Positions 5,737 to 33,350 of a DNA stretch of 64,000 nt are shown piece by piece. Source of the stretch: a virus. Lineage: Duplodnaviria; Caudoviricetes. The stretch lies in the IMG/VR virus record IMGVR_UViG_3300002220_006617, positions 63,666 to 127,665 of that record; one strand, given 5' to 3'. Both the position numbers and the translations under genes were made by a program. Every line of letters starts with the position of its first letter. Positions within the stretch are counted from its first letter, which is position 1. Under the pieces are notes generated by a model. It made no database searches. It was not told the DNA's origin and saw only the letters and a program-made list of their open reading frames with translations.

Positions 5737-5810
5737 TCCCGTTTTCAAGAACATCACTGTCAATTCCACCGCGGTATCCCAAAAACGAAACCAAACGCAG
5801 GTTATCTCCC

Positions 5811-5854
5811 AACGAGTGTCTCTCGAAAAAATTACCAAAAGGTACTAGTGAATG
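5811..5854 (+). promoter_or_regulatory. Conserved AAAATTACCAAAAG-N10-ATG element, copy 1 (36 bp identical to 14973-15008)
   Basis: aacgagtgtctctcgaaaaaattaccaaaaggtact occurs identically at both loci. Confidence 0.75.
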
Positions 5855-6328
5855 TCATCGTTAACTATCATCTCTGGTGGTCAGACTGGTGCTGACCAAG
5901 GTGCATTGCTCGCTGCTCATGATCTCGGTATCCCTACTGGCGGATACATCACCCGCGGTTTCATGACGGAAAAAGGCCCGATGCCCGCACTCGCTGATTT
6001 CGGACTGATCGCACTCGATACGTCAGACTACGTGACCCGTACCCGTATGAACGCGATGAAAGGGGACGTAACCTTCTGGTCGGGGACCGAAGATTCCCGC
6101 GGTTTCCTCGCCACCAAACGAGAATGCCGCAATGCCGGTAAACCGTTCATTGTCACCACCCACTGGTGCGTTGCACAACTGATGGAATACATCAACGAGC
6201 ACCCGCAGTATCACATCCTGAATTTCGCAGGCAACCGTGAATCGTCCAGCCCGGGCATCCAGGAAAATTCCAGAGCCTTCCTGCGCCTGGCATTCACCCC
6301 ATTCGCCCCGAGGAGGCCATTACCATGA
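5852..6328 (+). CDS. SLOG-superfamily protein (putative molybdenum carrier / YpsA-like)
   Basis: IISGGQTGADQGAL, RTRMN, LNFAGNRES motifs. Confidence 0.85.
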   Translation: MSSLTIISGGQTGADQGALLAAHDLGIPTGGYITRGFMTEKGPMPALADFGLIALDTSDYVTRTRMNAMKGDVTFWSGTEDSRGFLATKRECRNAGKPFIVTTHWCVAQLMEYINEHPQYHILNFAGNRESSSPGIQENSRAFLRLAFTPFAPRRPLP

Positions 6329-6729
6329 TACCACCAAAACCTGTCGTCCACATGGACAAAATCTGCAGAGTTTATGCGCATGACCACCCGAACTACATGT
6401 TCATCTTTGGCGACAACGATGCCAGAATGGGCTTTGGCGGCCTTGCAGCAGAACTTCGGGGATTGCCCAATGCATTCGGCATCCGCGTCAAAAAAGCCCC
6501 TACAATGAAGCCTGAGGCCTTCTACAATGACAACGACAACCACGAAGGCATCATCAAAATCAACCAGGACCTCCAGCACATCCGGGCCAACTGGAACCTC
6601 TACGACAAGATCGTCTTCCCGAAAGCGGGAGTGGGCACAGGCAGGGCCCTGCTCAAGGTGAAAGCACCGCAAACGTATGAACGTCTCGTCAAAATCTGCC
6701 GCGACCACGGCTTCGAGCAACCATCATGA
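6325..6729 (+). CDS. Phage Macro-like protein (FIFGDN...G.GG type)
   Basis: FIFGDNDARMGFGGLAAELRGLPNAFGI...FPKAGVGTGRA; this type often neighbours SLOG/DUF4326 genes in phages. Confidence 0.55.
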   Translation: MIPPKPVVHMDKICRVYAHDHPNYMFIFGDNDARMGFGGLAAELRGLPNAFGIRVKKAPTMKPEAFYNDNDNHEGIIKINQDLQHIRANWNLYDKIVFPKAGVGTGRALLKVKAPQTYERLVKICRDHGFEQPS

Positions 6730-6878
6730 GCTGCCGCGGCTGCGACCAGTTCGGGAACAATCAGTGTAGCCTCAACTACACCCCATTCTCTCTTGAACCG
6801 TATATGATCGAAGAAGGCTGCCTCTACAAATCAATCGGCGGCATCGAAGCAACACCAGCACAAAGGAAGGAATAAACT

Positions 6879-7532
6879 ATGGAACCACAGATGACAGCAA
6901 AAGTAACGTTAGAACCGATTGTTGAAAACAAGACCTGCACGTCCTGTGCAGCATGGGTAGAGCATTTCTGTGAAAGCACCGACATTGCAAACTATTCCTG
7001 CACCCACGGCCTCAGGATCACGGCAGCATCATGGAACAACCCCTGCGGTCGTCACGTCAACATCGCCGCAGCCCAGGCAATCTGCGCAAGTTGCAGAAGA
7101 ATAAACACCTGCCCCGATGCATCCATCCCGGAAGGCTGGCACAACCCGGGATGCGGGCACTGTCTTCTCATCAAAGCCGAATACCTGTCCGGCAGACAAA
7201 TGTTCGACAAGATAGAGGCTTACGAACTCGAATACGACCCCAACTCCTGCTACGATGCCGGTGAAGCCCTTCATTCAGAAGTCTGCGAGAACTGCATAGC
7301 CGATCCCTGCCCGTTCGGCAAGGATAACAAAGAATACGCTGACGCATGGCTCAACTGCCCGACCCTCAGACCATGGATCAAGAACGTTTTCACTGACATG
7401 GTCAAAGAAGCCATCCTCAAACTGGCAATCCTTGAAGAAACCATGTCCGAAGAAGACAGCGAGATGTGCGTCCAGGAAGACGGCGTCATCTGCCACGGCT
7501 GCGGTGACTGCGGGAGAATGGAGGCACAATGA
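6879..7532 (+). CDS. Cys-rich multi-metal-binding hypothetical protein
   Basis: Multiple CxxC motifs, terminal CHGCGDC. Confidence 0.6.
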   Translation: MEPQMTAKVTLEPIVENKTCTSCAAWVEHFCESTDIANYSCTHGLRITAASWNNPCGRHVNIAAAQAICASCRRINTCPDASIPEGWHNPGCGHCLLIKAEYLSGRQMFDKIEAYELEYDPNSCYDAGEALHSEVCENCIADPCPFGKDNKEYADAWLNCPTLRPWIKNVFTDMVKEAILKLAILEETMSEEDSEMCVQEDGVICHGCGDCGRMEAQ

Positions 7533-7822
7533 CCCACATGGACCAATTTTTCCCTGCCCCGGGCATCGGAGTAAGCCGGACTGACATCTCAAAACGGGTA
7601 TATCAAGAACGTTTCAACCTCTGCGAGGCTACTGCAGACGACAAGGCTGCCCGGCTGACTGACGATCAGATGAAACAGATCGCCGAAAGTTTCACAGAAT
7701 CGTTCTTTGAAATGCGACAGGGAACCATCAATATCAACGACGATGGCAACCTGTATCCTTCAGTCCTCAACGAAGCATACCGCTGGTGTGAAGAAGATTC
7801 AACAACCTGGGTGGAACCATGA
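7529..7822 (+). CDS. Hypothetical protein
   Basis: GGAGG SD and ATGA overlap. Confidence 0.6.
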   Translation: MTHMDQFFPAPGIGVSRTDISKRVYQERFNLCEATADDKAARLTDDQMKQIAESFTESFFEMRQGTININDDGNLYPSVLNEAYRWCEEDSTTWVEP

Positions 7823-7923
7823 CCCACTGTGACGAATGCGGCAAACCGCTAAACCAGAACGAAGATGCATCCTGGGACTGCCCATACTGCGGAGCTCACT
7901 ACAGCCCGTTCGACGGGTGAACC

Positions 7924-8133
7924 ATGTACCTCAGTATATTTTTCATGAGTATAATCTTCATGACAATCGTGTATTATTTCCTGTTTGAAGGCTGGATTGG
8001 ACATGAATCAAATTTCGGCAAGAATCACCCATTCATTGCTTTCCCCCTCAAACTCGTCAGTTTCGGCATATCGTTTGTCATCGGATATCTCATCACAGTA
8101 TATCTCACCTTCTATGCAGGCTGGTTATCATGA
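7924..8133 (+). CDS. Small two-TM membrane protein
   Basis: Two hydrophobic segments. Confidence 0.6.
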   Translation: MYLSIFFMSIIFMTIVYYFLFEGWIGHESNFGKNHPFIAFPLKLVSFGISFVIGYLITVYLTFYAGWLS

Positions 8134-8759
8134 AATCAAACGACATCAAATCTTTCACAGATCCCGAATTGATCAGCACAATTCTCAAGATCCAGGAAAC
8201 GGAAAAGGACCACCCAAAAAGAACAAACCCTGTCATAAAAAACATCCTTGCCACCCTCAACCAGAGGAAAGAACTCACATCATTCGAAGACCTCACCGCA
8301 AACTACGGGATCGGATCAGAAACCGCCCTCAAGGTCCTCGCATGCTTCGAAGTCGCCCGCCGGTACCAGGCATCAGGCGACCCCTCCTACAGAATCACCC
8401 AGCCGGAAGACTGCCTGAAACTCCTCGACCCCTACCGGGAGAAAAAACAGGAACATTTCATTGCATTCACCCTGAACGGAGCCGGAGAAGTAATCGGCAA
8501 CCGGGTTATCACAATCGGATTGCTCAATCACAGCCTCGTCCACCCGCGGGAAGTCTTTGCCGACGCCGTCACTGACCGGGCAGCATCCATCATCGTCGCC
8601 CACAACCACCCGTCAGGCTCCTTAGAACCCAGCAGCCAGGATATCGCCATCACCACCCAGCTGAAAGAAGCCGGCGCTATCCTCGGCATCCAGCTGATCG
8701 ACCATCTCATCGTAACAAAAACGGGCCATGTATCCATGAGAGAACGGGGATTAGTATGA
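8130..8759 (+). CDS. radC: RadC-family JAB/MPN domain protein
   Basis: QEHF, HPREVF, AHNHPSG..PS..D, LIDHLIV. Confidence 0.93.
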   Translation: MKSNDIKSFTDPELISTILKIQETEKDHPKRTNPVIKNILATLNQRKELTSFEDLTANYGIGSETALKVLACFEVARRYQASGDPSYRITQPEDCLKLLDPYREKKQEHFIAFTLNGAGEVIGNRVITIGLLNHSLVHPREVFADAVTDRAASIIVAHNHPSGSLEPSSQDIAITTQLKEAGAILGIQLIDHLIVTKTGHVSMRERGLV

Positions 8760-8908
8760 GTTACCAAGAAGAATGCATTGCATTCGCAAACGACGCCCGC
8801 GAACGCGGAAACGCTCAAACTGAACAGGATTGGGAAGATCAGGCACTAGGCAACTATTACCTGAATGAAGATTAACCATTTTTTTTATGTACCGGAGCAC
8901 AGACGACC

Positions 8909-9274
8909 ATGCATCAACCACACGTAATCCACAGCAACCTCCAGAAAACTGAAGAATACCTCGAGAAAGCAACCGCAGGTATCGGAAACCTCACCGATAT
9001 CCTGAACCGCCCGAGAGCCATCCGGTTCTATGCACAAGCACATTTCGAAGCAGAAGAACGTACCTGCTGGGTCATCAGCGTCTACCTTGACATTGAAGGC
9101 AACAACGGCCTTCACCTGACCCTCAACCCGGAAACGATCTGCGTTTTCAATGCCCCACGGCTCAGTTACAACAACTGGAAACAACAGCGCGACCAGGACC
9201 GGCCAAAAGCCCAGAAAGAACTGGAACGTACCGCAGCAAAATGGGGTTGCACAGTCATGCCAATCGCGGAATGA
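8909..9274 (+). CDS. Hypothetical protein
   Basis: GGAG upstream; open frame. Confidence 0.6.
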   Translation: MHQPHVIHSNLQKTEEYLEKATAGIGNLTDILNRPRAIRFYAQAHFEAEERTCWVISVYLDIEGNNGLHLTLNPETICVFNAPRLSYNNWKQQRDQDRPKAQKELERTAAKWGCTVMPIAE

Positions 9275-9567
9275 TCATGAACGCCAACCAGAAAACTGCA
9301 ATCGTCTACACGATACATGACATCCTTAAATGGACTATTGCAACAGAATGGACCCTCATCTGTGCATACTTAATTGCCAAAATCATAACATGGACCAACC
9401 CGCAACCAATCACGCCCGTTGGCTACGCTGTCGTGTTCATCATCATGTACATCCTCTGCATACCCCAGGTCCTCATCCACGGCCTTTACCTTGACCATCT
9501 CGAAAAACTCAACGAACCGCCCGCGGCTATCCTCGGCATTGACCCGGCGGTCAGGAACCGGGAATGA
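9271..9567 (+). CDS. Membrane protein (2 TM)
   Basis: Two hydrophobic helices; ATGA overlaps. Confidence 0.6.
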   Translation: MIMNANQKTAIVYTIHDILKWTIATEWTLICAYLIAKIITWTNPQPITPVGYAVVFIIMYILCIPQVLIHGLYLDHLEKLNEPPAAILGIDPAVRNRE

Positions 9568-10421
9568 CAGCAATCCTCCCGAAAGTCAAGATCTGGATTG
9601 ACCAGCCATTCAACAAGAAACTCGACCAGTCCCGGCATTCCGTTCTGAAATGGTACGGAACATCTAATGGGCAACCCGACGACAACGATTACTATTCCCC
9701 TCAAGAACACACTGCCATCTCATTCTCAGGCGGCAAAGATTCAACCGTTGTCCTGAGTCTAGTCCGGGACTACGTTGCACAGTTCGCGCTTGAAGACAAC
9801 GATCTTCGTCAAGCCAAAAAACACATGGCCAAAGTCAACGTCGTCTACGGCAACACCGGTGTCGAATATCCCGAGACTACCAAATTCGTACATATGCTCA
9901 GGGACCTCTGGGGATTCAACCTCATCGAACTCAAACCGGACCGGACCTTCTGGGACTGTGTCGATGAAACCGGCCTACCGGGCGGCAAAGACAAACGACC
10001 CAGCCGGAACGGCGATAAAACAGATATCTGCTGTTACTACCTCAAGGAAAAACCCATGCTAAAATGCATCAAAGACCGCGAGTTAAAAGTAGTCTATCTG
10101 GGAGTCACTGCACTCGAAAGCCGACAACGCATGATCAAAGCATCAACGCACGGCGACTGTTACATCGCCCAGAAATGGGGTGTCCGGAAAGTATTGCCGA
10201 TCCTCTACTGGTCAGAAAAAGAGGTCTGGTCCTACATTCACAAAAACAACATCCCGTTCAACCCGGTCTACCGCCGTAAATACGTCAAACGATGCGGATG
10301 CATGCCCTGCACGGCTCACAAAAACTGGAAAGAAGAAATCTGCAACGAGAAACCCAGCCTCTGTGCCAAAATCTTATCGATCATGGGCCAGAGTCAACTC
10401 CTCGAAACCCCGGTGATCTGA
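9564..10421 (+). CDS. PAPS-reductase-family (PP-loop) protein
   Basis: SFSGGKDS, NTGVEYPET, CCYYLKEKP, RCGCMPC. Confidence 0.88.
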   Translation: MTAILPKVKIWIDQPFNKKLDQSRHSVLKWYGTSNGQPDDNDYYSPQEHTAISFSGGKDSTVVLSLVRDYVAQFALEDNDLRQAKKHMAKVNVVYGNTGVEYPETTKFVHMLRDLWGFNLIELKPDRTFWDCVDETGLPGGKDKRPSRNGDKTDICCYYLKEKPMLKCIKDRELKVVYLGVTALESRQRMIKASTHGDCYIAQKWGVRKVLPILYWSEKEVWSYIHKNNIPFNPVYRRKYVKRCGCMPCTAHKNWKEEICNEKPSLCAKILSIMGQSQLLETPVI

Positions 10422-10454
10422 AAAAATTACCAAAAGGTACTCTCGATAATCATG
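10420..10454 (+). promoter_or_regulatory. AAAATTACCAAAAG element, copy 2
   Basis: gaaaaaattaccaaaaggtact upstream of ATG 10452. Confidence 0.7.
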
Positions 10455-10823
10455 ACTGAAATCACCATTGTTAACCTGCGGAACTGCCCCGGATTCGGAT
10501 CGCTGAAAGGAGATATCCGGATCGATCGCATGACTTCACTGGGCAATCCATTCCCGATCGGATCCTGCACTGAAAATGGCGTCGGTAAAGTCTACAGCCG
10601 CAAATCATGCATCGATCGATATGAAAAATACGTCTCCTACGCCGAACAGGTAGATGTCAGCGGCAAGAAATACGATGGTATGAAAGTCCGGCAAGCCATC
10701 AAGAAAATCCGGGAAGAGATCCGCGAGCATCCCGAGATGAACTACAGGCTTGGGTGTTGGTGCAGCCCCCTCAGATGCCATGGTGAAATTTTGAAAAACA
10801 GAATCCTCGATGGATGTGTCTGA
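10452..10823 (+). CDS. DUF4326-family protein
   Basis: IDRMTSLGNPF and LGCWCSPLRCHGEIL. Confidence 0.85.
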   Translation: MTEITIVNLRNCPGFGSLKGDIRIDRMTSLGNPFPIGSCTENGVGKVYSRKSCIDRYEKYVSYAEQVDVSGKKYDGMKVRQAIKKIREEIREHPEMNYRLGCWCSPLRCHGEILKNRILDGCV

Positions 10824-11035
10824 ACATGGCCCGCGGCCCCTTTTCAGATCTCCATTGCGGGTCAACCACGGCAGTCACAACCTTCACCATGGACGCCGTT
10901 CCCGCAAAATCAAGTGCAGAATATGACCATGAAATAAGAATCGCCAAACTTCCCCGTAAAATCAGGACCAAATCAGGCGAAACTATCTGGCTCAAATAAA
11001 GAGCCACCTTATTTCAATGTACCGGAGAACCACAG

Positions 11036-11587
11036 ATGACAACCACATACCTCCAAGAAATCTACGACCAGCAAATGGTCTTAAAACAAAAGGCTGAAAC
11101 CGAAATACCTTTTGTTGATGTACAGATAAAATCCATTGAATCCCAGCACCGGGACCTCATCGATCAAGCCCGGCCCATCCTGGCCAACCTCAAAGGACTC
11201 AACAACCACCTGAAAAACCTCAGGCACAAAGCCGGTAAAACCGCTCTGACCTTTCAATGTGCCCAATGCAACACACAAGTCAGTATCCCTCATACTGACC
11301 TTCTGAAAACCAATACAGAAGACGAAATCATCAAACTCGAGACCAGAATCCGCACGTTCCGGTGTTACGGCTGCGCCTACCAGGAAATCCAATCCCTCAT
11401 AAGAAAACGAGACCGGGATCTCGATGAACTCAAATTCAAAGAGACCGTCGCCAAACGCAACTACATCGAATCCCAACTCAAGTCCATCCTCAAACGCGAC
11501 GACGGCGGATCGTATATCATTGCCGAATCAGGCGAGAAGATCTATCTCAGCAACATTGCCAGCATCACCAAGGTCGAAAAACCATGA
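11036..11587 (+). CDS. Coiled-coil protein with zinc ribbon
   Basis: CAQC...CYGC between coiled segments. Confidence 0.6.
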   Translation: MTTTYLQEIYDQQMVLKQKAETEIPFVDVQIKSIESQHRDLIDQARPILANLKGLNNHLKNLRHKAGKTALTFQCAQCNTQVSIPHTDLLKTNTEDEIIKLETRIRTFRCYGCAYQEIQSLIRKRDRDLDELKFKETVAKRNYIESQLKSILKRDDGGSYIIAESGEKIYLSNIASITKVEKP

Positions 11588-12018
11588 TCTACAACACCAT
11601 CTTCAACAAACTCAATGCACTCGGGTTCCTCAATGTCTGGGACCATGCAACCCTCAAGGTTGAAGGCTTCATGCCACTCGAGATCGAGGTCCTCCGGAAG
11701 ACTGCTCCATTATCCAGCAACCCCTGGAAAATAATCTCCGTCATGCACTGGTATCTCCAGGAAGGCGACGTCATGCGAGATCCCGACATGGAAATCCGGG
11801 TCTACACAAACGCCAAAATTGCAGAGGCACTATCCTACCGGCAAGACGGCGTTCCCGGAGTCGGCACTATCTTCCAGGAAGTCTACCCGGAACCCGGCAA
11901 AATCAATCAAAAACACAAAAAAGAACTCAACGTCTTCCTCAACCAATGGCTGACGAACATTAAAGATCAGGGATTCAAATACCCGGAGTCAGAGGTAAAG
12001 AAAAATGACAGCGACTGA
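11584..12018 (+). CDS. DUF1249/DUF6908-like protein
   Basis: FMPLEIE, HWYLQEGDVMRDPDM, LNVFLNQWLTNIKDQG. Confidence 0.75.
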   Translation: MIYNTIFNKLNALGFLNVWDHATLKVEGFMPLEIEVLRKTAPLSSNPWKIISVMHWYLQEGDVMRDPDMEIRVYTNAKIAEALSYRQDGVPGVGTIFQEVYPEPGKINQKHKKELNVFLNQWLTNIKDQGFKYPESEVKKNDSD

Positions 12019-12406
12019 TCCCACTCAAGAACTCATGAAAGCATGCAAGATCTATCAGTCATGCCTGAACGAAGTCAACCGGAACCGGCTGGCTGCAGGA
12101 GATCCGCCAGTTGCATATCTCAACCCGATAGCCTGCAACTGCTGTATTGACCGGGACCACACGCTCGACGAAGTCAAAGAACGATTGGCCAACAGGAAAA
12201 TCAAAAGTACCTGTAAATGTCTTAATGACGACATCCCGCTCTGTCCCTACTGTGAACACAATGCAAGTCCGGGAGATACCTGCCCGGACGGATACCACGA
12301 AATCTGCAACGGCAATCCCGGTCACAAATGTCACAACTGCAAAGGCGACGATGCGCCGTTCGCAACATCATGCACCCACTGCGTATCAAAATGTACCCGA
12401 GGATAG
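12005..12406 (+). CDS. Cys/His-rich hypothetical protein
   Basis: Many Cys in CxxC-type motifs. Confidence 0.6.
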   Translation: MTATDPTQELMKACKIYQSCLNEVNRNRLAAGDPPVAYLNPIACNCCIDRDHTLDEVKERLANRKIKSTCKCLNDDIPLCPYCEHNASPGDTCPDGYHEICNGNPGHKCHNCKGDDAPFATSCTHCVSKCTRG

Positions 12407-12409
12407 ACC

Positions 12410-13309
12410 ATGCCAGAATTCAGAATTTTGTTCATTGACCCCCGCGGGGTCAACATCGAAGCGCCAACCGAACGAGAAGCAGTAGCGATCGTCATGGATC
12501 GGGAATGGGAACACGGAATGGACTGGAGTGACGGCAAAATCGAGATCATGTCAGTCGAGGAGATCTGATGATCCTCAACAAACGGGACCTCATCCACAAA
12601 CTCGACGGGTTAACCGTCAGACTTCGCTGTCAGGCCGGGGCATTCATTGCAATCGAAGGCGTCCCGGACTTCAACGCTGCTGACATCCGGCTCAACCGTC
12701 TCGGCAAATGCCTTGAAATGTCGAACTACCTTATCCTCATGGGAACTGACGGTCAGGAGATGACAGAAACCACAAAAGCCCATTACGACGAGTTCATCCG
12801 ATATCTCAACGAATGTCATCAGGCATTTGAAATAGGAAAGAAACCAGCATGATCAACTACTTCACCAAATCCGAAGCCCAGGCAAAGGTCGGTAAACGGG
12901 TCAAAACCAAAATTGAATTCTACCAGTTACCGGCCGGCACTACCGGGAAAGTCACCGGAATCTACAGTGGCTGGCGCAATGAAAGTGGAGTTGACATCAC
13001 CTGGAACCGTAATCCACCCATCACTGACGGCTTCTCCAAAGACGAATACGAAGAGTTCATCGAGGAACTGTCATGACCCCGGAAGAAGCCAAGAAAGTAG
13101 CGGCACTCATCTGGTATGCATCTCACGACAATGCAGACGCTCCAGTTGACTCAATGCTCGATGCAGTAGCGATCCTGCCTGAACTCAAACCTTACGCCAT
13201 TCTCCTCGCAAAGAAAGAATGGGACGTAAACCTCGAAATCCCTGAAGGTAATCAACCCGATCCTGAACTCACAGGACTCATTGAAGATTTATTCGAATGG
13301 ACCGCCTGA
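12410..13309 (+). CDS. Four small hypothetical ORFs (12410-12568, 12568-12852, 12849-13076 SH3-like, 13073-13309)
   Basis: Overlapping stop/start junctions; end of the early + strand operon. Confidence 0.55.
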
Positions 13310-13699
13310 GCCGCAGGCTCTAAAGAATAAAGGGGGCCCTCAAAGCCCCCGACAAGGTCCAGAATCGAGCCGTGTCTTTCATAATAAACAATAGAATACA
13401 CATCTACATGATAGGTTCACATCCTACAGTAGACATCCTAATGGGGCTGCCGCCCCCTTCAACCCCTGCTTCTCATCAATATCATCCTACCAACAACAAA
13501 CCAAATCCCACATCACCGCCTGAGACACCGAATATATATAAATGCCCTTATACTACTACAAACTTTCGCAGAAATACCAAATCTCAACAATACACCGATA
13601 ATTCACAGTCCAATCAGTAAAAACACCGCAAATTTGAGCCGGCACAAGCGGTTGGCTCTGCGGAATAGGGGCGGGCGGGTTCGCAAGGTAAGGCGGAGA

Positions 13700-14154
13700 C
13701 CGTTACAGTTTGGGCGATACCCTGTCATCCAGAGCACGGGCGGGCTCCGATCTACAGTTTGCCGGAGCATTATTGGCGGGATTCGCAATCGGGCTCTATT
13801 TTACAGTTTCCGGCAGGGACCTGGCAAAACTGTTACAATCAGACTGTTTCCGGGGCAGGGCCCTTTCACATGTTACCGTCTGAGGTTACAGTTTGTTACC
13901 GTCTGGCACCGTCTGTAACAAAAGAATGTTACAGTTTGTTACAGTCAGACTGTTACAGTTTGTTACAGTCAGGTGTAACCGTCGACACAGGCGGTAACAG
14001 TTGCGGGTGTAACCGTCGGAAGTGTAACAGGTGTAACCGTCGACACTGACGGTAACAGGAGAATGTTACCGTCTGACACCGTCTGTAACATTCAGGTGTA
14101 ACATTTTGTTACAGTGACTTTCGTTTAAGTGTAACAGTGTAACATTTTGTTACA
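13700..14154. repeat. Dense array of GTTAC/GTAAC (TGTTACA/TGTAACA) repeats in both orientations; candidate origin iterons, operator or centromere
   Basis: More than 25 pentamer cores; tgttacagtttgttacagtcag occurs twice; TGTAACATTTTGTTACA palindrome at 14097-14113 and 14138-14154. Confidence 0.85.
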
Positions 14155-14483
14155 TGACAAAAAGCAACGTCAAACGAATCACAGAAGACTCAGAAGCAAT
14201 TGCACTCAGTTACGGCCCGACAATCTCAGATGGCATCATTGCTATGGCAAATCTTATCGGAAAACCAACCCCGGCACCAACAGTTTCCGCGATACCGTCA
14301 CAACAGACAGTTTCTGGCGGGGACCTGGAAACCATCATCAGAAAGATAGTCCAGGAAGAGGGCGTCACCTTATCGCCGAAAGCAATTGAGACGGGCATCA
14401 TGCTCAGCAAGAAACAACGTGGGTTCTTCCAGAACCTCAATAATGCATTGATCATGGCCATGAGCCGTGAAAACAAAATCTGA
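14154..14483 (+). CDS. Putative ribbon-helix-helix DNA-binding protein
   Basis: N-terminal strand VKRI, helix TEDSEAIALSY, G, helix TISDGIIAMANL; promoter embedded in the repeat palindromes. Confidence 0.5.
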   Translation: MTKSNVKRITEDSEAIALSYGPTISDGIIAMANLIGKPTPAPTVSAIPSQQTVSGGDLETIIRKIVQEEGVTLSPKAIETGIMLSKKQRGFFQNLNNALIMAMSRENKI

Positions 14484-14738
14484 TTTTTTCAAGAATATAT
14501 CCAATAAAACCCGGGCCGCGAAAGACCGGGCGATTATCAAGAAGATCAGTCAAGCCGGCGAGTAAGTGTCACGGGTGACGATCAACGCTTTCAAGAATAG
14601 TCTCGCCTCAACCACAGTTTCCGGCTGCAGGAACCGACGGCCGGTTGGAGTGGGGATGCTCATCGCCATGGTTAAATACCCGATTACGCCAGCACCCAGA
14701 CGGACAGACCCGACAAAATTACCAAAAGCGACGAGTGT

Positions 14739-14951
14739 ATGGTATCAGAGCGTGTTGTTGTCCATGAAGATGGCTCGTTTGTGCGTGTGATCGATGAAGT
14801 TGCCTGGGTGGCTGGCAGATTGCGGTTTATATCCACTGTGTATCACTATGATTATCCGGAGCTCCTGTTCTCGCATGAATACTACCGCGCCGGCGTGGTT
14901 CCCGAGGTTGTTCTGGTGGGGGTCAAGTACGATCCTCCCCTCAGCTCCTGA
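14739..14951 (+). CDS. Small hypothetical protein after AAAATTACCAAAAG copy 3
   Basis: Motif at 14715-14728; ATG exactly 10 nt after it. Confidence 0.6.
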   Translation: MVSERVVVHEDGSFVRVIDEVAWVAGRLRFISTVYHYDYPELLFSHEYYRAGVVPEVVLVGVKYDPPLSS

Positions 14952-15059
14952 TTTATCCGGACTGTACGGACTAACGAGTGTCTCTCGAAAAAATTACCAA
15001 AAGGTACTTTCGAATGAGATCACGGTTTCGTCACATGATCTTGTTCAGGAAGTATTGAT

Positions 15060-15524
15060 ATGGAAACCACAGAACTCAACACCGGATCCGAATCGCAGAT
15101 GACCTTACCCGAAACCACCAACCCGCCCGCAGCAGCACCGGCGCTCAAGAACTCCCGTTGTGGCTTCATCTTCAAGAGCCAGTTCACGGACCCGACCAAG
15201 GCATTCGTTATCAAGGCTGACGGCGTCCCCGACATGTACATCAACGCAAATGGCGTGGTCTGGGCAAACGTGTTCAGCATCCCTGTCATCGATGGGAAAC
15301 TCGCTGACGTTGGTCGTTCAGAGCCAACCCCGTTCGACACCCTGCACTCCTCAAAGTCGGGAGAGACCGTGACCTTCAGGGCACTCGGGAACAACTACAT
15401 GATCAAGAAGGACAAATACAATCTGGTCAACGCGGGCCTTGAGCGCAATGCAATGGTCACCCGCCTGCCGATTGAGACCAAGACCCAGCGGGACGTTCGG
15501 CTGGCCAAGGAATCAGCAGCCTGA
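15060..15524 (+). CDS. Hypothetical beta-rich protein after motif copy 4
   Basis: Strongly biased codon usage; T-tract downstream. Confidence 0.7.
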   Translation: METTELNTGSESQMTLPETTNPPAAAPALKNSRCGFIFKSQFTDPTKAFVIKADGVPDMYINANGVVWANVFSIPVIDGKLADVGRSEPTPFDTLHSSKSGETVTFRALGNNYMIKKDKYNLVNAGLERNAMVTRLPIETKTQRDVRLAKESAA

Positions 15525-15707
15525 CCAATCCGCACCCTTTTTGCACGTCTCTCACACCTGTATGTCACCACACATTGATCCGTTCCCATCATGGAAATTG
15601 GGGGGCGGATCCTTCTTTTTTGTACTGCCATGACAGCGGGGCCCGATCCCCCGGCGCGCCTGGTCCTGATGAACCAGCCACTCTGGGGGACGACCCCCTA
15701 TGGTCCG

Positions 15708-15789
15708 GTTGGGGATAGTCGGGCCCTGCGTCCTGACAGTCGCAGACCCCTGGGCGGCGCTGATGCGCCGCTGTCAAGAACAACCCGTA
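15708..15789. repeat. 82-bp double-hairpin repeat, copy A (copy B at 17558-17639)
   Basis: 4 mismatches between copies; CTGCG..CGCAG and GCGGCGC-TGAT-GCGCCGC stems. Confidence 0.9.
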
Positions 15790-16176
15790 GTGATAGCCCA
15801 GACACATTCAATAAGAAGAATAAAACACTGACCCTGAAAACAATTATATACACCAACCGGTGGGAGAAGGTCATACCCTTAAATAAGAGAAACGATGTAT
15901 TTATATCCTGACACCGTCAATAATAGTATGTCTGCAAGGCTTTGTCACCTTGCGGCGCGATAGATCTATTCTCAATATAGTTCTGTCGTCTGTGATTCAT
16001 TCCGTTGCTGGAATAGCCAAGGACAACGGGCCGGCCACACAAACCTTTCGTTGCTGAAAAGGGGTCGGTCCGGAACTCCCTGAGCTGGTTTACTGTTACT
16101 TTCCTGGAGTGTCAACCTTCGTGCGATCGGAGGTCTGTTCTGTTCTTGGGGGCCGTCGCCCCCGCCACGAGGGCAT

Positions 16177-16260
16177 CCCCAGACGCCTTGCACCACGGGC
16201 TTCGCCACGAGCAAGTCTTTACAAGATGATGGAGGGCTGCCCGCCCCCCAAACCCCCTGG
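16177..16260. repeat. Structured repeat 2, copy A (copy B at 17880-17967)
   Basis: CCCAGACGCCTTGCACC-[variable insert]-AGCAAGTCTTTACAAGATKATGGAGGGCT..CCGCCCCCAAACC.CCTGG. Confidence 0.85.
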
Positions 16261-16342
16261 CCAAGGGGATCCCCCCTGGACCCCCGGGGCTGGCCGCAGG
16301 CCCACGAGTGCATTTGGAAAAATTACCAAAAGCAACGAGCGT

Positions 16343-16486
16343 ATGACGTCCTTTACAGGTGTTACGCAGCAGGTATTGACCTCAGACCACATGATGCAGC
16401 AGTTCCAGCAGATCTTCTCGTTCGATCTTCTGTTCGGGCTCAACCAGTTCGTTAGTTCAATCATCATGGTCTGCGGGTGGTTCTGA
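16343..16486 (+). CDS. 47-aa hydrophobic peptide A
   Basis: MTSFTGVTQQVLTSDHMMQQFQQIFSFDLLFGLNQFVSSIIMVCGWF; motif copy 5 ends 10 nt upstream. Confidence 0.65.
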   Translation: MTSFTGVTQQVLTSDHMMQQFQQIFSFDLLFGLNQFVSSIIMVCGWF

Positions 16487-17403
16487 TGGAGATCGGATTC
16501 TCCCAGAACCTCGATTACGATCGGGCGGTTATCCGCAAGCATGTGGGGCCCGCTACGGTTCACGGCAAATCGGTCAGCAGGGACAACAACCCCCGCCACG
16601 ACCTTTTCGTCTGCACAGATTGTGGCGATGTGAAATGTGATTCATGTCCGATTGACTGGGACAAGGTTACTCGGCAGCAGCGGGGGGTCTAATCATGATC
16701 ACTCCCGTCCGTTGTCCCAACTGTGGCAAACATTACATCCCCGACCTCGGTGAACGCAAACGGTACGACATGAACATCCAGCAGGAGTTCCCGAACGCGA
16801 CCAGCATCCAGCGGGAACAACTCATGACAGGTCTCTGCAGTGACCAGTGCTGGCAGGAATTCCTCGGACCTGAGCCTGAGGAGGATTTCTGTGAAGGATG
16901 CACTGCAGACTGCACCTTCTGCCCGCAGGCTGACGGGGAGAGTGCAGAATGATCATTGACGGGGACCAGCCTGTCAATAAGATCCTCGACCGGGCCAGCG
17001 AACCCCTTCCTGCCAAACCGTCAGGTGACGTGGTGGTTGGCTCATGATCGACTTCCAAGTCCCCTCCCATCTGGGGGGCCGGTTCACCAACATTTCCCAC
17101 GTCAGAATGCGGAGTTGCCAGACAGTCTGTTACGGTGACCCGTGTGACGGGGTGTGGAGTGGTGTTCCCGATGCCATCAGGCATCCAACGTTCACTCCCC
17201 GCCAAACGTTCCTCGCACTGCAGTCGATCTATGAATCACAACATCAGGACATCATAGCATTCGATATCTACGATGCCATGGAGCTCGAGTGCTGTGATCA
17301 CTGTCCAATAGCAGCAGACTGCTCAACACGACCGCGGGTGGATGGCGACATCGACTGCATCACCGTGCAGGACTGGGCTTACAGTCTGTTCAGGACGAAT
17401 TAA
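16486..17403 (+). CDS. Operon of small ORFs, three Cys-rich (16486-16692, 16695-16952, 16949-17047, 17044-17403)
   Basis: CxxC motifs in three of the four; TGATG/ATGA overlaps; T8 tract at about 17409. Confidence 0.6.
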
Positions 17404-17557
17404 TCACCTTTTTTTTATGTACGCTGGCGCTGTGCACTGGGGCTGGCCCTGATGGTCCCACCCCACGGGGTTATACGAGATGTCAACCCCCCAACCCCCC
17501 TCTCCAGGGGGGCTAGGCCATACGGTCCTGGACGGACCGATGGCCAAATGGTGTATT

Positions 17558-17639
17558 GTTGGGGGTAGTCGGGCCCTGCGTCCTGACGGCCGCAGACCCC
17601 TGGGCGGCGCTGATGCGCCGCTGTCAAGAACAAACCGTA
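17558..17639. repeat. 82-bp double-hairpin repeat, copy B
   Basis: Matches 15708-15789. Confidence 0.9.
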
Positions 17640-17879
17640 ACGGTAACCTGCCCCTGTCAAGAACAAACGGCAATTGTCAATAATAAACTTCAATTGTTCT
17701 CCGGACCCGAAGGGTCTAAAAAGGGATCAAGAATACCTGGGGATCGCATAAAGAACAAACTTAGTTGCTATATAGAGCATATCATCATCCTCACCCCCAT
17801 CCTCCCGGCACCCGGTTGTCAATCATAGAAGCACACATCTTTCCTTGGGGCCACGCCCCTGGCCCCAGCGAAGCGCCAA

Positions 17880-17967
17880 CCCCAGACGCCTTGCACCAGG
17901 GGGGCCCCACTGCCCCTCCAGCAAGTCTTTACAAGATTATGGAGGGCTCCGCCCCCAAACCGCCTGG
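17880..17967. repeat. Structured repeat 2, copy B
   Basis: Matches 16177-16260. Confidence 0.85.
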
Positions 17968-18002
17968 AGCGCAGTGGCAAAATTACCAAAAGCCATGAGC
18001 GC

Positions 18003-18146
18003 ATGACTACTACAGGCATAGCAACAGAATCGGTATCGCAGATGTGGATGCAGTATACACAGATGTTCAATGGCACAGTCATTGACCTCACCTGGCTCTC
18101 ACCCCTCACGGACTCACTCGTCGGGCTGCTGGGCATGGTGCTCTGA
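18003..18146 (+). CDS. 47-aa hydrophobic peptide B (likely paralog of peptide A)
   Basis: MTTTGIATESVSQMWMQYTQMFNGTVIDLTWLSPLTDSLVGLLGMVL; motif copy 6 ends 10 nt upstream; T7 tract follows. Confidence 0.65.
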   Translation: MTTTGIATESVSQMWMQYTQMFNGTVIDLTWLSPLTDSLVGLLGMVL

Positions 18147-18265
18147 CCCTTTTTTGCTGTACGGTTGATACGCAGGCATACCTTGGGCATACACCCTGCG
18201 AACTACGCAGACTGATGCCCTATTGCGAGTGTGCTTGGTTGAAAATTACCAAAAGCCTCGAGCGT

Positions 18266-18448
18266 ATGGAAGCAGAAAGCTACTTGGTTGAATATGGCGG
18301 GGCTCCCCGCTGTGTGATTGATGAACTCGCTTGCTATGAGACCGAAGTGTTCTACGAGGGGACTTACGTCCCCGGGATGAAGTCGGTTCGGCTCGAACTC
18401 GACGTCCTGAGTGGACTGGTGGGGATAGTGGTGGAGGAGGTCTGTTGA
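18266..18448 (+). CDS. Small acidic protein after motif copy 7
   Basis: MEAESYLVEY...EEVC; motif at 18242-18255. Confidence 0.6.
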   Translation: MEAESYLVEYGGAPRCVIDELACYETEVFYEGTYVPGMKSVRLELDVLSGLVGIVVEEVC

Positions 18449-29426: not shown

Positions 29427-32400
29427 ATGGCTGATCCTGTCCCCGATAACTATTTAATAAAACCGTATGGGGATACCTTCATCCCGTATTTTCGCCAGGT
29501 CATGGGGGTAGCCAAAGAGATCACCTTACCTGACGGCTCAGAATACGTTACCGAAGCTGAGGCCAACAGCATCATCGACCAGATCATGCAGGACCGCAAA
29601 GGCACGTCAGCCCAGCGAATCCAGCAGAACCGGAACCTGTATATCCGCGACATCCCGATGCAGATGCAACAGGACGTCGGGTTCTATGATCCTTATTCAA
29701 CGGGATTCTACGAAGAATTCGATAAAGTCCTCGGCGACGCTATCAACAACAAATCCGCTGAAATCGATGGGAAGATCGAAGATACAAAAATTGAGATCGG
29801 CCTTCTGGAACTCCAACGGAACGACCCGGGATTATCATGGTCGGATAAAACCGATCTCAATCGCCAGATAAAAGAAACCGACAACGAACTCAAAACGTTA
29901 ATGCTGGTCGCTTCCGTGGCACATAACGTCCAGGCCGTCTGCTACATGCCCCAACTGTTCCTCAATTCAGCTGAGGATGCCATCAGCATTGGGTTTTCCA
30001 ACAAATATCAGGCAGATACCTTAACCCGCCTGTACAATACCAACGAAGCCTGGCAATCGGCAATCACCCAGCGATTGTTCGGGGGAATGGTCCAGGCCGC
30101 CAAAGCAGACCCGCTCCAGTTCGGGCTCGATATGGTTGTCGGCATCCTTGCATCCAAAGGTGTTGCAAAAGCCGCCGGAAAAATAACACCAAAAGTATTC
30201 CCGAAAACCGAGATAAAAACCTTAGCCGACGGCCAGGTCAAAGTCACCACCAGATCATGGTCGGTTACTGACTTCAAAGAATCCATTGTCGATAAAGTCA
30301 AGGAAAAACTTCAGATCACCACAAAAGATCCCGTCAAACTCAACACACAGTTTGACCAGATCAAGAAATATTACGATAACGCCAACACAATTCTCAGTTA
30401 CTACGCCAAACCGGCATGGTTACGTTCCCCGGTCCAGATGGATTACAACCCGCGAAGCGGCAGGGCCCCAACCGAACGAGAAATGGAGTTCATGACCCTC
30501 ATTGCCGATCAGTTAACCAAAACAGGGGTCTCAACAGAAATCGCAATACGTAACCCGGTACAGTCTCTCAAACAGATCAAAGCCAGTCTTTATCATGACC
30601 CGGCAGCCCTGTCAAAAATCGTCTATGTCGCCCACCAGAAACTCGGTGCAGCTCTCGGGTTATCGATCTGGAACCAGCTCGAGAAAATGCCGGAATCAGA
30701 GAACCTGAGAGTAAAACAACAGATTGTTGACAAAATCATTGATACCGGAATACCCGTATCTGACCTTCCGCCAACTGCAATTGCACGAATCTTCAACCAG
30801 GAAAATCTGATTACCGGCCGGGACGAAACCTTCGTCAAAAACATGGATTTCCTGAAACGCGGGGGTGAACTATCCCCGGAATTTTATGATCTCAACGATC
30901 TTAGCCGTATCCCGCTGGACGTTGCACTATCACCGAAATCTTCGAACCAGATCGCCGACCTTATCCCACGAATCCGGCAGAAACTGAACATCGAAGAACG
31001 TATCGAACTGGTCAAACGACTCCAGGACCTCAAAGCCCAGAATAAAGATATGGTAATCAGCCCGTATCATATCGACTGGGTATTATATGGGTTCGGCGTT
31101 CTCGAACTTCCGGAAATCCGCGATAAATTCAATAAAGAAATAGTGCGATTAGGCCCAATGGCTGCTATCAACCTGAAATATTTCAGTTATGAAGAAAGTC
31201 CTGATTTTATCAAAAACTCCAACCTGAACAGCCAGGACCGGAAAAAACAGTTTCTTGTTGAAGCAAAATCTGAATCGGCAATGCGATCCAATGCCCGGTT
31301 CGAACCTGACGAGAACGGTAACATTATCGACACTTCCGTACAATTTTCATCAATCGATGTCGGATCTACTTCATTAGGATACATCCCTGTCAACTATGGG
31401 AATATCATCAAAGAATACATTGAAACCAATATCTGGGAACCAAACCTCAAATTAACCAATTACAACGAAGCTGCAGTAAAAAGACTGGCTGAACTTCAAC
31501 AGAAACGTACTGAATACACCGATCTTTCCATGAACGAGATCCTTGAATTAACCGATAATACCAAGAACCTCATGCCGAAAAATTCAGCAGAATACCGGGA
31601 ATTTCTCGACCGGAAAGCCGGGTACATTGGCCCGAACACATTAAACGCCATGGAAACTGCAGATTATTCCCCTATCAACAACATTGAACTGGAAAAACTA
31701 ATTTACGGCCCAAAATGGGCAGATTACGCAACTTCAGAAATCTCCATGGATGCACAATCTCACGGTAAAAGCGGTAACGAAGGGTTACGCATGGCACGGA
31801 CATTATCGGCCGACGGAGTTACCCAACGCGATCGTGGAGCATTCAACCTGAACCGAAGAACCCGGGCTATCAGCAGTTACCCTGCCGATGCATTACGGCT
31901 CAACAACAACAAAGTCAGCACATTCTTAACCAGCAGCCAGGGCATTTATGAAGGCGAACGGATGATCTGGGAATCTGGCAGTATGATCACCCGTGCAAAA
32001 CAAGATGCCAAAGATCTTGCCATCGGCCGGGGGGCCATCTCAATAGATCAATCAACCGGTTTACCTTTAACCGAAACCCAGCGATTAAAAAAACTAGCAG
32101 ACGCAACTGCATGGATCCAAAAATTCAATTCGGTATGGTATAATGAAAAAATTGTTGAAACCTCACTTGGCCCCGTAAAAACCTACCCGGACCGACCCAG
32201 TTATATCGAATACCTTGTAGAATCAGGAAAATCATACCTGCCCGGTGCAGAGATGCCGCCCAATCCCTTTGCACAAGGATATGATTTCAACGTCTTCGGG
32301 GCAGGACAGAAGTACCTTGGCAAATCCAACGTAGGTTATAAAAAACTCAATTACCTCAAAGAAGTCCTGAAAGCATCTGACGGTGTAGCAAATTCAGATC

Positions 32401-33350
32401 CATGGATTTACGAACAGTTACTCAACATGGGCCTCGCAGAAGGCGGCCCTGCCACGGGCATTGATAAAACATTCCTCAAAACCCGGGCATTATTTGACCC
32501 GGTTGCTAAAAGATGGGATCAATCCGGACAAGCTCCACTTGATCCCAGAAACCGCATATGGAAAAAGACCGAACGAGCCCGGAAAGAAGCATTAACCCGT
32601 CTGGAAGTCGGGGCCCGTGACGTTGATGGCGTTCTTCTTGACCGCGGGGGTATTGAATGGACTGAAAGTATCCAGAACCTCGAGTACCAGGAAACAAAAC
32701 AACTGTATGACAACCCGGGATCTATGCCAACCGCTGAAGAACTGCTAGATACCGGCGAATATAACATGGACAAAAATATCGATGACCTGTTCAGCGGAAA
32801 CGATCCGTGGAACTCGCTGGTCGCACGAAAGACCAAGTATCAGGTCCCTTCAACATTCACCAGAATTCCCACAGATTTCAACCAGGACCTCCAGAATAAC
32901 GGGTTCTTCGAACAGTTCAAAGGATTCATCAGCAACGCCATGCAATTTGCCCAGATAAAGGAAAATACCCTCAAAACCGATCAACAGGACGCCATTACAG
33001 TCATGAAAACCCAGGATAAATCCCATACAAGTGCCTGGGATCTTCAGTCCAACATTGTCAACAATTATCTGGAATCACTTAACCGGAACCAACAGGCTGC
33101 TGTCAATGCCAGCACAGAAACCCCGCCCATGGACGCCATCTTCGAGACCAACATCAGTTCCACCCCGCAAGGCAACAGCAAACTGTTCGGGATCCCATTA
33201 CTGGCAAAGACTGCACAGGTAACCGAAACCGTTGAAGGTAAGAAAGGTACTGCCAGCCAGGAAACCCTGGTTGCCGAACAGGTAGCCAACCTTGCCCTGC
33301 CACTTGTCATCAAAAATCTCGGATTATTAGCCCGGAAATACGTGACATAA
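29427..33350 (+). CDS. Large virion protein (1307 aa), tape-measure/ejection protein candidate
   Basis: Position after chaperones; N-terminal coiled coil and G/A-rich hydrophobic segment. Confidence 0.55.
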   Translation: MADPVPDNYLIKPYGDTFIPYFRQVMGVAKEITLPDGSEYVTEAEANSIIDQIMQDRKGTSAQRIQQNRNLYIRDIPMQMQQDVGFYDPYSTGFYEEFDKVLGDAINNKSAEIDGKIEDTKIEIGLLELQRNDPGLSWSDKTDLNRQIKETDNELKTLMLVASVAHNVQAVCYMPQLFLNSAEDAISIGFSNKYQADTLTRLYNTNEAWQSAITQRLFGGMVQAAKADPLQFGLDMVVGILASKGVAKAAGKITPKVFPKTEIKTLADGQVKVTTRSWSVTDFKESIVDKVKEKLQITTKDPVKLNTQFDQIKKYYDNANTILSYYAKPAWLRSPVQMDYNPRSGRAPTEREMEFMTLIADQLTKTGVSTEIAIRNPVQSLKQIKASLYHDPAALSKIVYVAHQKLGAALGLSIWNQLEKMPESENLRVKQQIVDKIIDTGIPVSDLPPTAIARIFNQENLITGRDETFVKNMDFLKRGGELSPEFYDLNDLSRIPLDVALSPKSSNQIADLIPRIRQKLNIEERIELVKRLQDLKAQNKDMVISPYHIDWVLYGFGVLELPEIRDKFNKEIVRLGPMAAINLKYFSYEESPDFIKNSNLNSQDRKKQFLVEAKSESAMRSNARFEPDENGNIIDTSVQFSSIDVGSTSLGYIPVNYGNIIKEYIETNIWEPNLKLTNYNEAAVKRLAELQQKRTEYTDLSMNEILELTDNTKNLMPKNSAEYREFLDRKAGYIGPNTLNAMETADYSPINNIELEKLIYGPKWADYATSEISMDAQSHGKSGNEGLRMARTLSADGVTQRDRGAFNLNRRTRAISSYPADALRLNNNKVSTFLTSSQGIYEGERMIWESGSMITRAKQDAKDLAIGRGAISIDQSTGLPLTETQRLKKLADATAWIQKFNSVWYNEKIVETSLGPVKTYPDRPSYIEYLVESGKSYLPGAEMPPNPFAQGYDFNVFGAGQKYLGKSNVGYKKLNYLKEVLKASDGVANSDPWIYEQLLNMGLAEGGPATGIDKTFLKTRALFDPVAKRWDQSGQAPLDPRNRIWKKTERARKEALTRLEVGARDVDGVLLDRGGIEWTESIQNLEYQETKQLYDNPGSMPTAEELLDTGEYNMDKNIDDLFSGNDPWNSLVARKTKYQVPSTFTRIPTDFNQDLQNNGFFEQFKGFISNAMQFAQIKENTLKTDQQDAITVMKTQDKSHTSAWDLQSNIVNNYLESLNRNQQAAVNASTETPPMDAIFETNISSTPQGNSKLFGIPLLAKTAQVTETVEGKKGTASQETLVAEQVANLALPLVIKNLGLLARKYVT

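Follow-up and report, generated by a model that had tools for sequence, protein, structure and literature searches.

The archaeal tailed virus HF2 carries intergenic repeats of two classes, class I with 58 bp and class II with 29 bp, which are promoters read by the host polymerase alone (PMC8707807). HF2 has no polymerase gene, and its class II repeats are active in uninfected Haloferax, with a start at A and a likely TATA box within an A/T motif at −19 to −26 (PMC8707807). The repeat classes divide between early-middle and morphogenesis genes, and virus-encoded factors have been proposed (PMC8707807). In rudiviruses and many crenarchaeal viruses, a virus-specific conserved sequence surrounds the promoter core of early anti-defence genes, and divergence of such sequences from virus to virus is the rule among crenarchaeal viruses (PMC11065993). 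Here we describe a 14-nt word, AAAATTACCAAAAG, in a 64,000-nt stretch of the IMG/VR record IMGVR_UViG_3300002220_006617. This stretch, called the window in the following, represents positions 63666–127665 and thus the second half of the 127,665-bp (127.7-kb) contig. The contig belongs to a large uncultured archaeal tailed virus of the myovirus type. We consider it moderately probable that the 14-mer represents the invariant core of a virus-specific promoter class, which would be read by the host archaeal RNA polymerase with leaderless geometry.

The word occurs in eight exact copies in the contig, seven of which lie inside the window (Table 1). All eight are intergenic, that is outside called genes, and are co-oriented with the genes downstream. 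A first-pass annotation, made from the letters of the window, had picked out seven copies on the + strand, and we find an exact match at every one of these positions. No − strand copy is present in the window, and no copy with one or two mismatches exists in the whole genome. Sites with three mismatches number 16 genome-wide, most of them within genes. In shuffles of the window with up to two mismatches permitted, the mean is 0.54 matches and the maximum is four. Among all 12-mers of the genome, the word ranks first in number of repeats. Its complement is absent genome-wide at up to two mismatches, and a 16S or antisense pairing target for the word was dropped for this reason. The copies span 27 kb (genome 54.6–81.9 kb), and five of them are clustered within a repeat-rich, gene-poor 4-kb stretch that holds duplicated modules. 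The region is 100% identical among independent JGI, ENA and Logan assemblies, including JGI 3300002821 and SRR636569, and the word region is therefore no assembly artefact.

In six of the eight copies an ATG follows the word at a distance of 10 nt, which confirms the annotated spacing of 20 nt from TTACC. The two remaining gaps are 15 nt for copy 2 and 37 nt for the eighth copy, where the next good start is an ATG behind GGAG, in frame with the called open reading frame (ORF). Copy 1 precedes the gene for a circularly permuted YpsA-like SLOG protein (cpYpsA). The Pfam match of this protein begins at residue 6, which identifies the ATG at 5852 as its true start, and a 65%-identical homologue begins at the equivalent Met. 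For copy 4, the annotated ATG at 15014 does sit 20 nt after TTACC, but the frame that it opens is merely 14 codons long (15014–15058). The gene behind copy 4 probably starts at 15060, with AGGAAG, located 8 nt upstream, as its putative ribosome-binding site.

The flanks of the word divide the copies into two subtypes. Subtype A, represented by copies 1, 2 and 4 and by the eighth copy, shows G-R-A before the word and GTACT after it. In subtype B (copies 3, 5, 6 and 7), the word is followed by C-N3-GAGYGY-ATG; the extension already noted for four copies holds in the form C-N2-Y-GAGYGY-ATG. All four subtype B copies share a pyrimidine-A (Y-A) step at the ATG. The only invariant base in the upstream flank is a G three nt before the word, and the remaining flank is variable and not purine-rich. 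Seven of the 12 + strand copies of CGAGYGY in the genome flank the word, either 14–16 nt before it or 17 nt after its first base, and the distance from upstream to downstream box is 31–33 nt. Such regularity bears on the idea that the word represents functionless recent copies, left over from small duplications where the sequence evolves fast. In keeping with this idea, the word is confined to this virus and is missing from the cpYpsA gene of a relative, and parts of the 15.6–18.2 kb region are duplicated. The flanks are at background, yet 14 nt are identical in all eight copies over 27 kb and before unrelated genes. Together with the two structured subtypes and the fixed positions of the CGAGYGY boxes, this makes functionless copies the least probable of all explanations considered, with hardly any weight.

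Copies 1 and 4 share 36 identical bp, again as first annotated. Since this 36-bp module fronts two unrelated genes, the element has been copied. A recombination site for the capture of gene cassettes had been put forward as the alternative to a promoter, and the shared module speaks for it, even if it may be a side effect. T4 is known for promoter-stem-loop cassettes, and phages of the T5/phiKMV type have a nick consensus. A site acting at the DNA level, in recombination, nicking or the shuffling of cassettes, would also suit the location of five copies in the gene-poor, repeat-rich 4 kb, adjoining a dense GTTAC/GTAAC array, and the common strand of every copy. However, a fixed register with start codons is unexpected for such a site. 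There is no conserved flanking stem-loop, no recombinase is linked to the copies, and the identical independent assemblies reveal no gain or loss of cassettes. We regard this explanation as very unlikely. Cassette movement may follow from the repetition of a promoter and need not be the function of the word.

The promoter assignment is based on the sequence between the genes. At four junctions (5737–5851, 10380–10451, 14952–15059 and 18147–18265) the 5' part of the word is the sole octamer with at least seven A/T, and it is therefore the only candidate TATA box there. On the + strand, runs of at least five T are rare and are located just past ORF ends, upstream of several copies. Oligo-T ends archaeal transcription, which would account for the rarity of such runs. 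With putative oligo-T terminators upstream, the units downstream, for example 18242–18448, need their own promoter. The close ATGs are not preceded by a GGAG-type ribosome site (Shine-Dalgarno sequence) in the stretch that follows the word. Internal genes of the virus carry GGAG 5–10 nt ahead of the ATG, and the copies with distant ATGs (copy 4 and the eighth copy) do have ribosome sites. Close ATGs without GGAG fit leaderless mRNAs, and the fixed 10-nt spacing would be explained by the requirement of leaderless mRNAs for a start site at the ATG. The proposal of a promoter class with transcripts starting at or next to the ATG agrees with the intergenic position, the strand, the terminators, the sole A/T block and the missing Shine-Dalgarno sequence. 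It is also in keeping with the finding that no RNA fold is conserved around the eight copies. An Rfam scan of the window at the gathering threshold gave no match, and a scan for bacterial sigma-70 promoters and terminators performed no better than on shuffles.

The same spacing could reflect an RNA-level translational operator in the 5' leader, bound by a viral or host RNA-binding protein. RegA of T4 acts in this manner on A/U-rich sites adjoining start codons. Six of the eight words lie 10 nt from the AUG, and the word is strictly strand-specific, invariant, A-rich and unpaired in most predicted folds. The virus also encodes many RNA-handling genes. An operator of this kind needs promoters further upstream, and the four junctions contain no other A/T-rich octamer while T-run terminators stand ahead of several copies. 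In three copies the functional start codon is 15, 37 and 46 nt away, and the close ATGs do not have the Shine-Dalgarno sequence expected of a leadered mRNA. We consider a translational operator unlikely.

We return to the promoter as the preferred explanation. From the anatomy, spacing, strand and gene content of the copies, together with the lack of polymerase and basal-factor genes described below, we infer promoter activity, start sites, timing and regulator as follows. In an archaeal core promoter, the A/T-rich TBP site is centred about 26–27 nt before the start site. The A/T block AAAATTA of the word is found at −24 to −18 from the ATG and extends to −25/−26 in most subtype A copies, which have a longer A run; it would represent the TATA-like, TBP-binding block. 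ACCAAAAG would occupy the position of the proximal element at −17 to −11, and transcription would start about 11 nt past the word, at the A of the ATG. Leaderless mRNAs would be produced at five or six units. Elsewhere, we would expect leaders of 5 nt (copy 2) and of about 40–46 nt with a Shine-Dalgarno sequence (the eighth copy and copy 4). One or more sequence-specific regulators, viral or host-encoded, may switch the eight units together. We propose such regulation because the word is invariant, because it comes in two subtypes and because the CGAGYGY direct repeats are about three helical turns apart; one of these repeats would cover the predicted start site. A virus-encoded factor acting on the word is plausible.

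Several observations weigh against this assignment. The A/T block is 4–7 nt nearer to the ATG than the usual archaeal TATA box (about −24 to −31), and it is also nearer than the TATA box of a second promoter-like class of this virus, the TGACWT class described below. AAAATTAC agrees poorly with the TTTAWATA consensus, and no purine-rich B recognition element (BRE) lies upstream of the A/T block in the eight copies. The invariance of the word may in part stem from recent copying, as exemplified by the 36-bp module. Furthermore, pattern and nhmmer profile searches of the loci of capsid relatives, about 560 kb in total, retrieved no copy of the word, which is also missing before the 65%-identical cpYpsA gene of the relative L156. 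Positional conservation in related viruses had been named beforehand as a test, and its absence in L156 and in these loci lowers our confidence.

Upstream of the cpYpsA gene in L156 there is only a loosely similar A-rich stretch, which ends 24 nt before the ATG. The word is likewise absent from three metagenome-assembled genomes (MAGs) holding relatives, and the identical word recurs only in other assemblies of the same virus. By these searches the 14-mer is private to this virus. Exact matches of the word in IMG/VR and JGI metagenomes, retrieved with three patterns, were rejected as further members; they are all single among the matches listed, and the contexts read look like chance in unrelated, often A/T-rich DNA. 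Two matches read in detail encode K-L-P-K-G. Against a phage collection, blastn of the region gave no match, and tblastn of the capsid and baseplate proteins gave distant matches only.

Table 1. Positions of the 14-mer, its flanking boxes, T runs, downstream genes and TGACWT-plus-TATA sites (window coordinates unless marked as genome).
Feature	Position	Strand	Remarks
Copy 1	5828–5841	+	Subtype A, GAA before, GTACT after; cpYpsA/SLOG ATG 10 nt on
Copy 2	10423–10436	+	Subtype A; 2 nt past PAPS-reductase stop codon; DUF4326 ATG 15 nt on
Copy 3	14715–14728	+	Subtype B; precedes 70-aa ORF
Copy 4	14990–15003	+	Subtype A; 36 bp identical to copy 1; precedes 154-aa gene
Copy 5	16319–16332	+	Subtype B; CGAGYGY box either side; precedes 47-aa ORF
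Copy 6	17979–17992	+	Subtype B; GAGCGC variant box either side; precedes second 47-aa ORF
Copy 7	18242–18255	+	Subtype B; 92 nt beyond T6 run; precedes 60-aa ORF
Eighth copy	genome 54604	+	Subtype A; 9061 nt ahead of window start, downstream of Cdc6/Orc1 gene
ATGs 10 nt past the word	5852, 14739, 15014, 16343, 18003, 18266	+	
Upstream CGAGYGY box	5813–5819	+	15 nt ahead of copy 1
Further upstream CGAGYGY boxes	14975–14981, 16305–16311, 18226–18232	+	
Downstream CGAGYGY box	16336–16342	+	Abuts ATG (−7 to −1)
Further downstream CGAGYGY boxes	14732–14738, 18259–18265	+	
GAGCGC variant, downstream	17997–18002	+	
T6 run	18150–18155	+	Right after ORF end 18146; archaeal oligo-T terminator-like
Similar T runs after ORF ends	8879–8886, 14484–14489, 15538–15542, 15616–15621, 17409–17416	+	
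cpYpsA (SLOG), 158 aa	5852–6328	+	PF12694, 2e-29
DUF4326 protein, 123 aa	10452–10823	+	PF14216, 5e-15
70-aa ORF	14739–14951	+	No family match
154-aa ORF	15060–15524	+	No family match; one distant homologue, 42% identity
47-aa ORF	16343–16486	+	No Lys or Arg, hydrophobic C-terminus; no family match
Second 47-aa ORF	18003–18146	+	Similar composition; no family match
60-aa ORF	18266–18448	+	No family match
TGACWT-plus-TATA sites	25785, 28074, 29388, 37234, 49039, 49722, 53344, 56347		
TGACWT-plus-TATA sites	genome 1200, 1950, 10519, 59325		

The initial suggestion was that the word is read by a viral factor or a viral RNA polymerase, a non-host enzyme being proposed because the A/T block is close to the ATG and a purine-rich BRE is lacking. 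The contig has no match to TBP (PF00352), TFIIB (PF00382) or T7-like polymerase (PF00940), and a six-frame search for D-x-D-G-D shows this motif in the terminase alone. Neither a Pfam scan of 115 non-structural ORFs nor a PHROGs scan of selected large and word-linked ORFs revealed a polymerase or basal factor, and no polymerase lead came from the Atlas for the orphan proteins of 643 and 1307 aa. These searches covered the 83%-complete contig by sequence families, and small DNA-binding proteins escape Pfam. A SNAPC3 match at genome 60483–60617 with 19 bits, below cut-off, was dismissed, as it also appears in unrelated control genomes. A contiguous conserved block from about −27 to +3, without canonical TATA box and BRE and unusually near to the start, would suit a polymerase that is virus-encoded or carried in the virion and unrecognisable by sequence. 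About 17% of the genome is missing, and large proteins of 643, 582 and 1307 aa have no family. Yet HF2 repeats of the same geometry work with the host machinery only, so a viral polymerase is not needed. The 29- and 58-bp repeats of HF2 also contradict the initial argument that long invariant promoters imply a phage polymerase (PMC8707807). Published reviews know of no RNA polymerase encoded by an archaeal virus (PMC5569661). On these grounds a viral polymerase is highly improbable. A broader variant would be a TATA-independent promoter, recognised either by a polymerase with an unrecognisable fold or by a specificity factor that the virus encodes to redirect the polymerase of the host, and we consider it quite unlikely. 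We know of no sigma-like or T7-like strategy described for any archaeal virus.

Besides the 14-mer, we observe the second promoter-like class already mentioned. It consists of a TGACWT box (TGAC[AT][TC][TC]), a gap of 1–7 nt and TTTWTAA, with the 3' end of the TATA box 23–28 nt before the ATG, and is present in 18 copies on the + strand versus three on the − strand. This class is found ahead of structural genes, among them those for sheath and baseplate, and of some other genes too. It is kept in nearly all relatives (L017, L021, L160, L162–L173) with a strong strand bias, in most related loci with 6–10 forward versus 0–2 reverse copies per 10–20 kb. Judged from this conservation, the TGACWT-plus-TATA element is probably a lineage-wide late promoter, and perhaps it needs a virus-encoded factor. 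The genes behind the 14-mer are non-structural and include those for two predicted counter-defence enzymes and several tiny ORFs. Judged from this gene content, the class may be early or middle and thereby distinct from the TGACWT-plus-TATA promoters, which serve structural genes. If both assignments are correct, the two elements give a simple two-class map of the genome. The 14-mer alone gives no pointer to a new transcription mechanism.

As first annotated, the copies do lie ahead of non-structural genes, with cpYpsA/SLOG and DUF4326 as examples. A survey of viral NAD/ADP-ribose functions predicts that SLOG domains of the YpsA clade degrade immune signals of the cyclic ADP-ribose type, and that DUF4326, a member of the rhodanese-phosphatase clade, processes terminal phosphates of the products (PMC9503650). 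SLOG and DUF4326 are often fused together or to Macro or NADAR domains, and they are thought to act early in infection (PMC9503650). In the window, the two genes are 4.6 kb apart in different units, each behind subtype A. The position of both predicted partners behind the same subtype supports co-regulation and a counter-defence flavour, and the two genes are predicted to belong to one NAD/ADP-ribose counter-defence network. Most likely, each copy stands at the head of one unit in a set of non-structural genes that are regulated together and in part serve counter-defence. A word-indexed search found no relatives of the DUF4326 protein. The relative of the 154-aa protein is encoded on a 970-bp contig that has no word but shares a different 38-nt element. 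BLASTP of the second 47-aa ORF against the first gave no alignment. Structure models of the word-linked 154-aa and 163-aa proteins reached a pLDDT (predicted local distance difference test) of 40 and 32 and are too poor to use.

Should the word prove to be a promoter, a regulon would lie ready to hand in a virus of archaea from methanogen communities, for which hardly any transcription data are available. The eight units, including the orphan mini-proteins, would then be candidates for early host-takeover or counter-defence functions, and two predicted ADP-ribose-signal-degrading enzymes would be among the members. Anti-defence genes of crenarchaeal viruses were found by the same logic.

The assignment of the contig to an archaeal virus is based on its genes. 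Archaeal replication genes are present with MCM, truncated by the contig start, Cdc6/Orc1 and PCNA. The structural genes comprise terminase, Mu-type portal, HK97-type capsid protein, tail sheath and baseplate proteins. Further genes encode RtcB, an RNA ligase, an enzyme of the CCA-adding/poly(A) polymerase family, RlaP, ThiF and an NrdD-like anaerobic ribonucleotide reductase. Nearly all genes are on the + strand. CheckV estimates a completeness of 83%, and the full genome is probably about 150 kb long. The predicted proteome has a median pI of 5.9, and since the proteins are not acidic the virus is not a halovirus. The source was a methanogenic oil-sands culture, and the samples behind assemblies such as JGI 3300002821 and SRR636569 are described as an Alberta petrochemical wastewater (oil-sands tailings) pond, with related datasets mined for the methanogen marker mcrA (PMC10159854, PMC6147122). 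The host is probably a methanogen. A search with MCM against 401 genomes gave at best ≤49% identity and no pointer to a host. Capsid relatives with 49–56% identity are found on contigs binned with MAGs of Archaeoglobales, Hydrothermarchaeota and Ca. Pyrohabitans and in IMG/VR; one further relative, 85% identical, is located on a 3.3-kb contig outside the word scan. A capsid protein with 55% identity is encoded by JAQVBV010000021.1 (95 kb, L020/L161), a contig of a 'Bacteroides sp.' MAG, and one source lists the protein as 'encapsulin'. The contig is probably viral and wrongly binned, and the protein name is probably wrong as well.

Additional features of the genome were noted. The set of RNA-repair genes is large (genome 20296–21510, 30437–31753 and others) and includes RtcB, RNA ligase, RlaP and an HD domain, as well as a CCA-adding/poly(A) polymerase head domain and an RNA-binding domain. 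Beside these genes we find ThiF, ERCC4, Dam and cytosine-C5 methylases, thymidylate and deoxynucleoside kinases and RNase H. DUF1848 and a Cas_VVA1548-like protein are likewise encoded by the virus. In the tail module, a 1307-aa protein (window 29427–33350) falls into no Pfam or PHROG family; the Atlas gives only weak matches, to clusters with the large-polyvalent-protein domains LPD38 and LPD3. The gene that follows it encodes 1294 aa with a nuclease domain at the end.

The GTTAC/GTAAC array at window 13690–14150 is dense and consists of direct and inverted repeats in families of 30–52 nt. It stops at the start of a 109-aa ORF that bears a TGAC-TATA element, and the array may serve as an operator region or as a replication origin. 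In L156, too, an inverted GTTAC...GTAAC pair is found upstream of cpYpsA. A 38-nt non-coding element beginning with TTACAAGATTATGG is located 42–100 nt upstream of copies 5 and 6 (window 16218–16255 and 17929–17966). It is 89% identical in a distant relative (L189:172–207), whose neighbouring protein is 42% identical, and it is followed there by a perfect hairpin and a T6 run. For the 38-nt element, a role as small RNA or as additional promoter is conceivable. Two copies of a GC-rich 91-nt module are 91% identical (window 15708–15798 and 17558–17648). The two modules lie within two non-coding stretches of about 600 nt, each ending in the word and a Lys/Arg-free 47-aa ORF. Folds around 17879–18015 and 18142–18278 are more stable than those of shuffles (z −2.7 and −3.8).

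The 16-mer AGGAAAATTACCATGA is present in two places (genome 32904–32919 and 35027–35042), and at both sites the first nine letters of the word abut a start codon, of a 70-aa and a 224-aa gene. Another upstream word, ATGTACC(G/C)GAG with a T-rich stretch before it, is the third of its kind and is positioned 8–11 nt before three start codons (window 8879–8908, 11010–11035 and 12385–12409). Many start codons of the virus are found in a CACAGAYGA context behind GGAG, with 17 + versus 3 − copies.

Comparison with bacteriophage systems shows limited agreement. T7 class III and N4 early promoters share with the word a contiguous, highly conserved block near the start site. This block is located at −17 to +6, whereas the word is at −24 to −11. 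T7 and N4 use their own polymerase, and none was found on the contig. The hairpins of N4 are absent around the word, and the conserved stem-loop of the T4 promoter-stem-loop cassettes has no counterpart either, as the eight copies share no common fold.

The agreement is closer for archaeal viruses, and the initial view that such a promoter class would be unusual for an archaeal virus goes too far, as other archaeal viruses carry such signals. Similar to the early sequences of crenarchaeal viruses, the word precedes several small, fast-evolving genes, varies between related viruses and is linked to counter-defence genes, here the predicted SLOG and DUF4326 genes. It differs in that the crenarchaeal sequences have a strong canonical BRE and a TTTAWATA box, which the word is without. 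Early timing was measured there, while timing and anti-defence role are read from sequence for our virus. Short direct repeats near or over the start serve as repressor sites for F55 in SSV1 and for Aca8 on rudivirus early promoters. Their counterpart here would be the CGAGYGY boxes at about −39 and −7, which are candidate repressor sites.

The HF2 repeats differ from the word in sequence, to which they show no similarity, and in host, a halophile there and a non-halophile, probably a methanogen, here. They keep their position across related viruses, whereas the word is private, although the TGACWT class is conserved. Reporter assays and primer extension have demonstrated the activity of the HF2 promoters, while the word is a candidate known from sequence. 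Both viruses are archaeal tailed viruses with near-identical intergenic repeats that are co-oriented with the genes, and the sequence directly before the start site, a predicted one in our virus, is conserved in both. One class is found among non-structural genes and another in the morphogenesis module, here represented by the 14-mer and the TGACWT-plus-TATA element, respectively. The spacing of the A/T motif in HF2 class II equals the spacing from AAAATTA to the ATG. By analogy, we conclude that the word probably belongs to the virus-specific repeat promoters already known from archaeal viruses, as a new member whose core is non-canonical.

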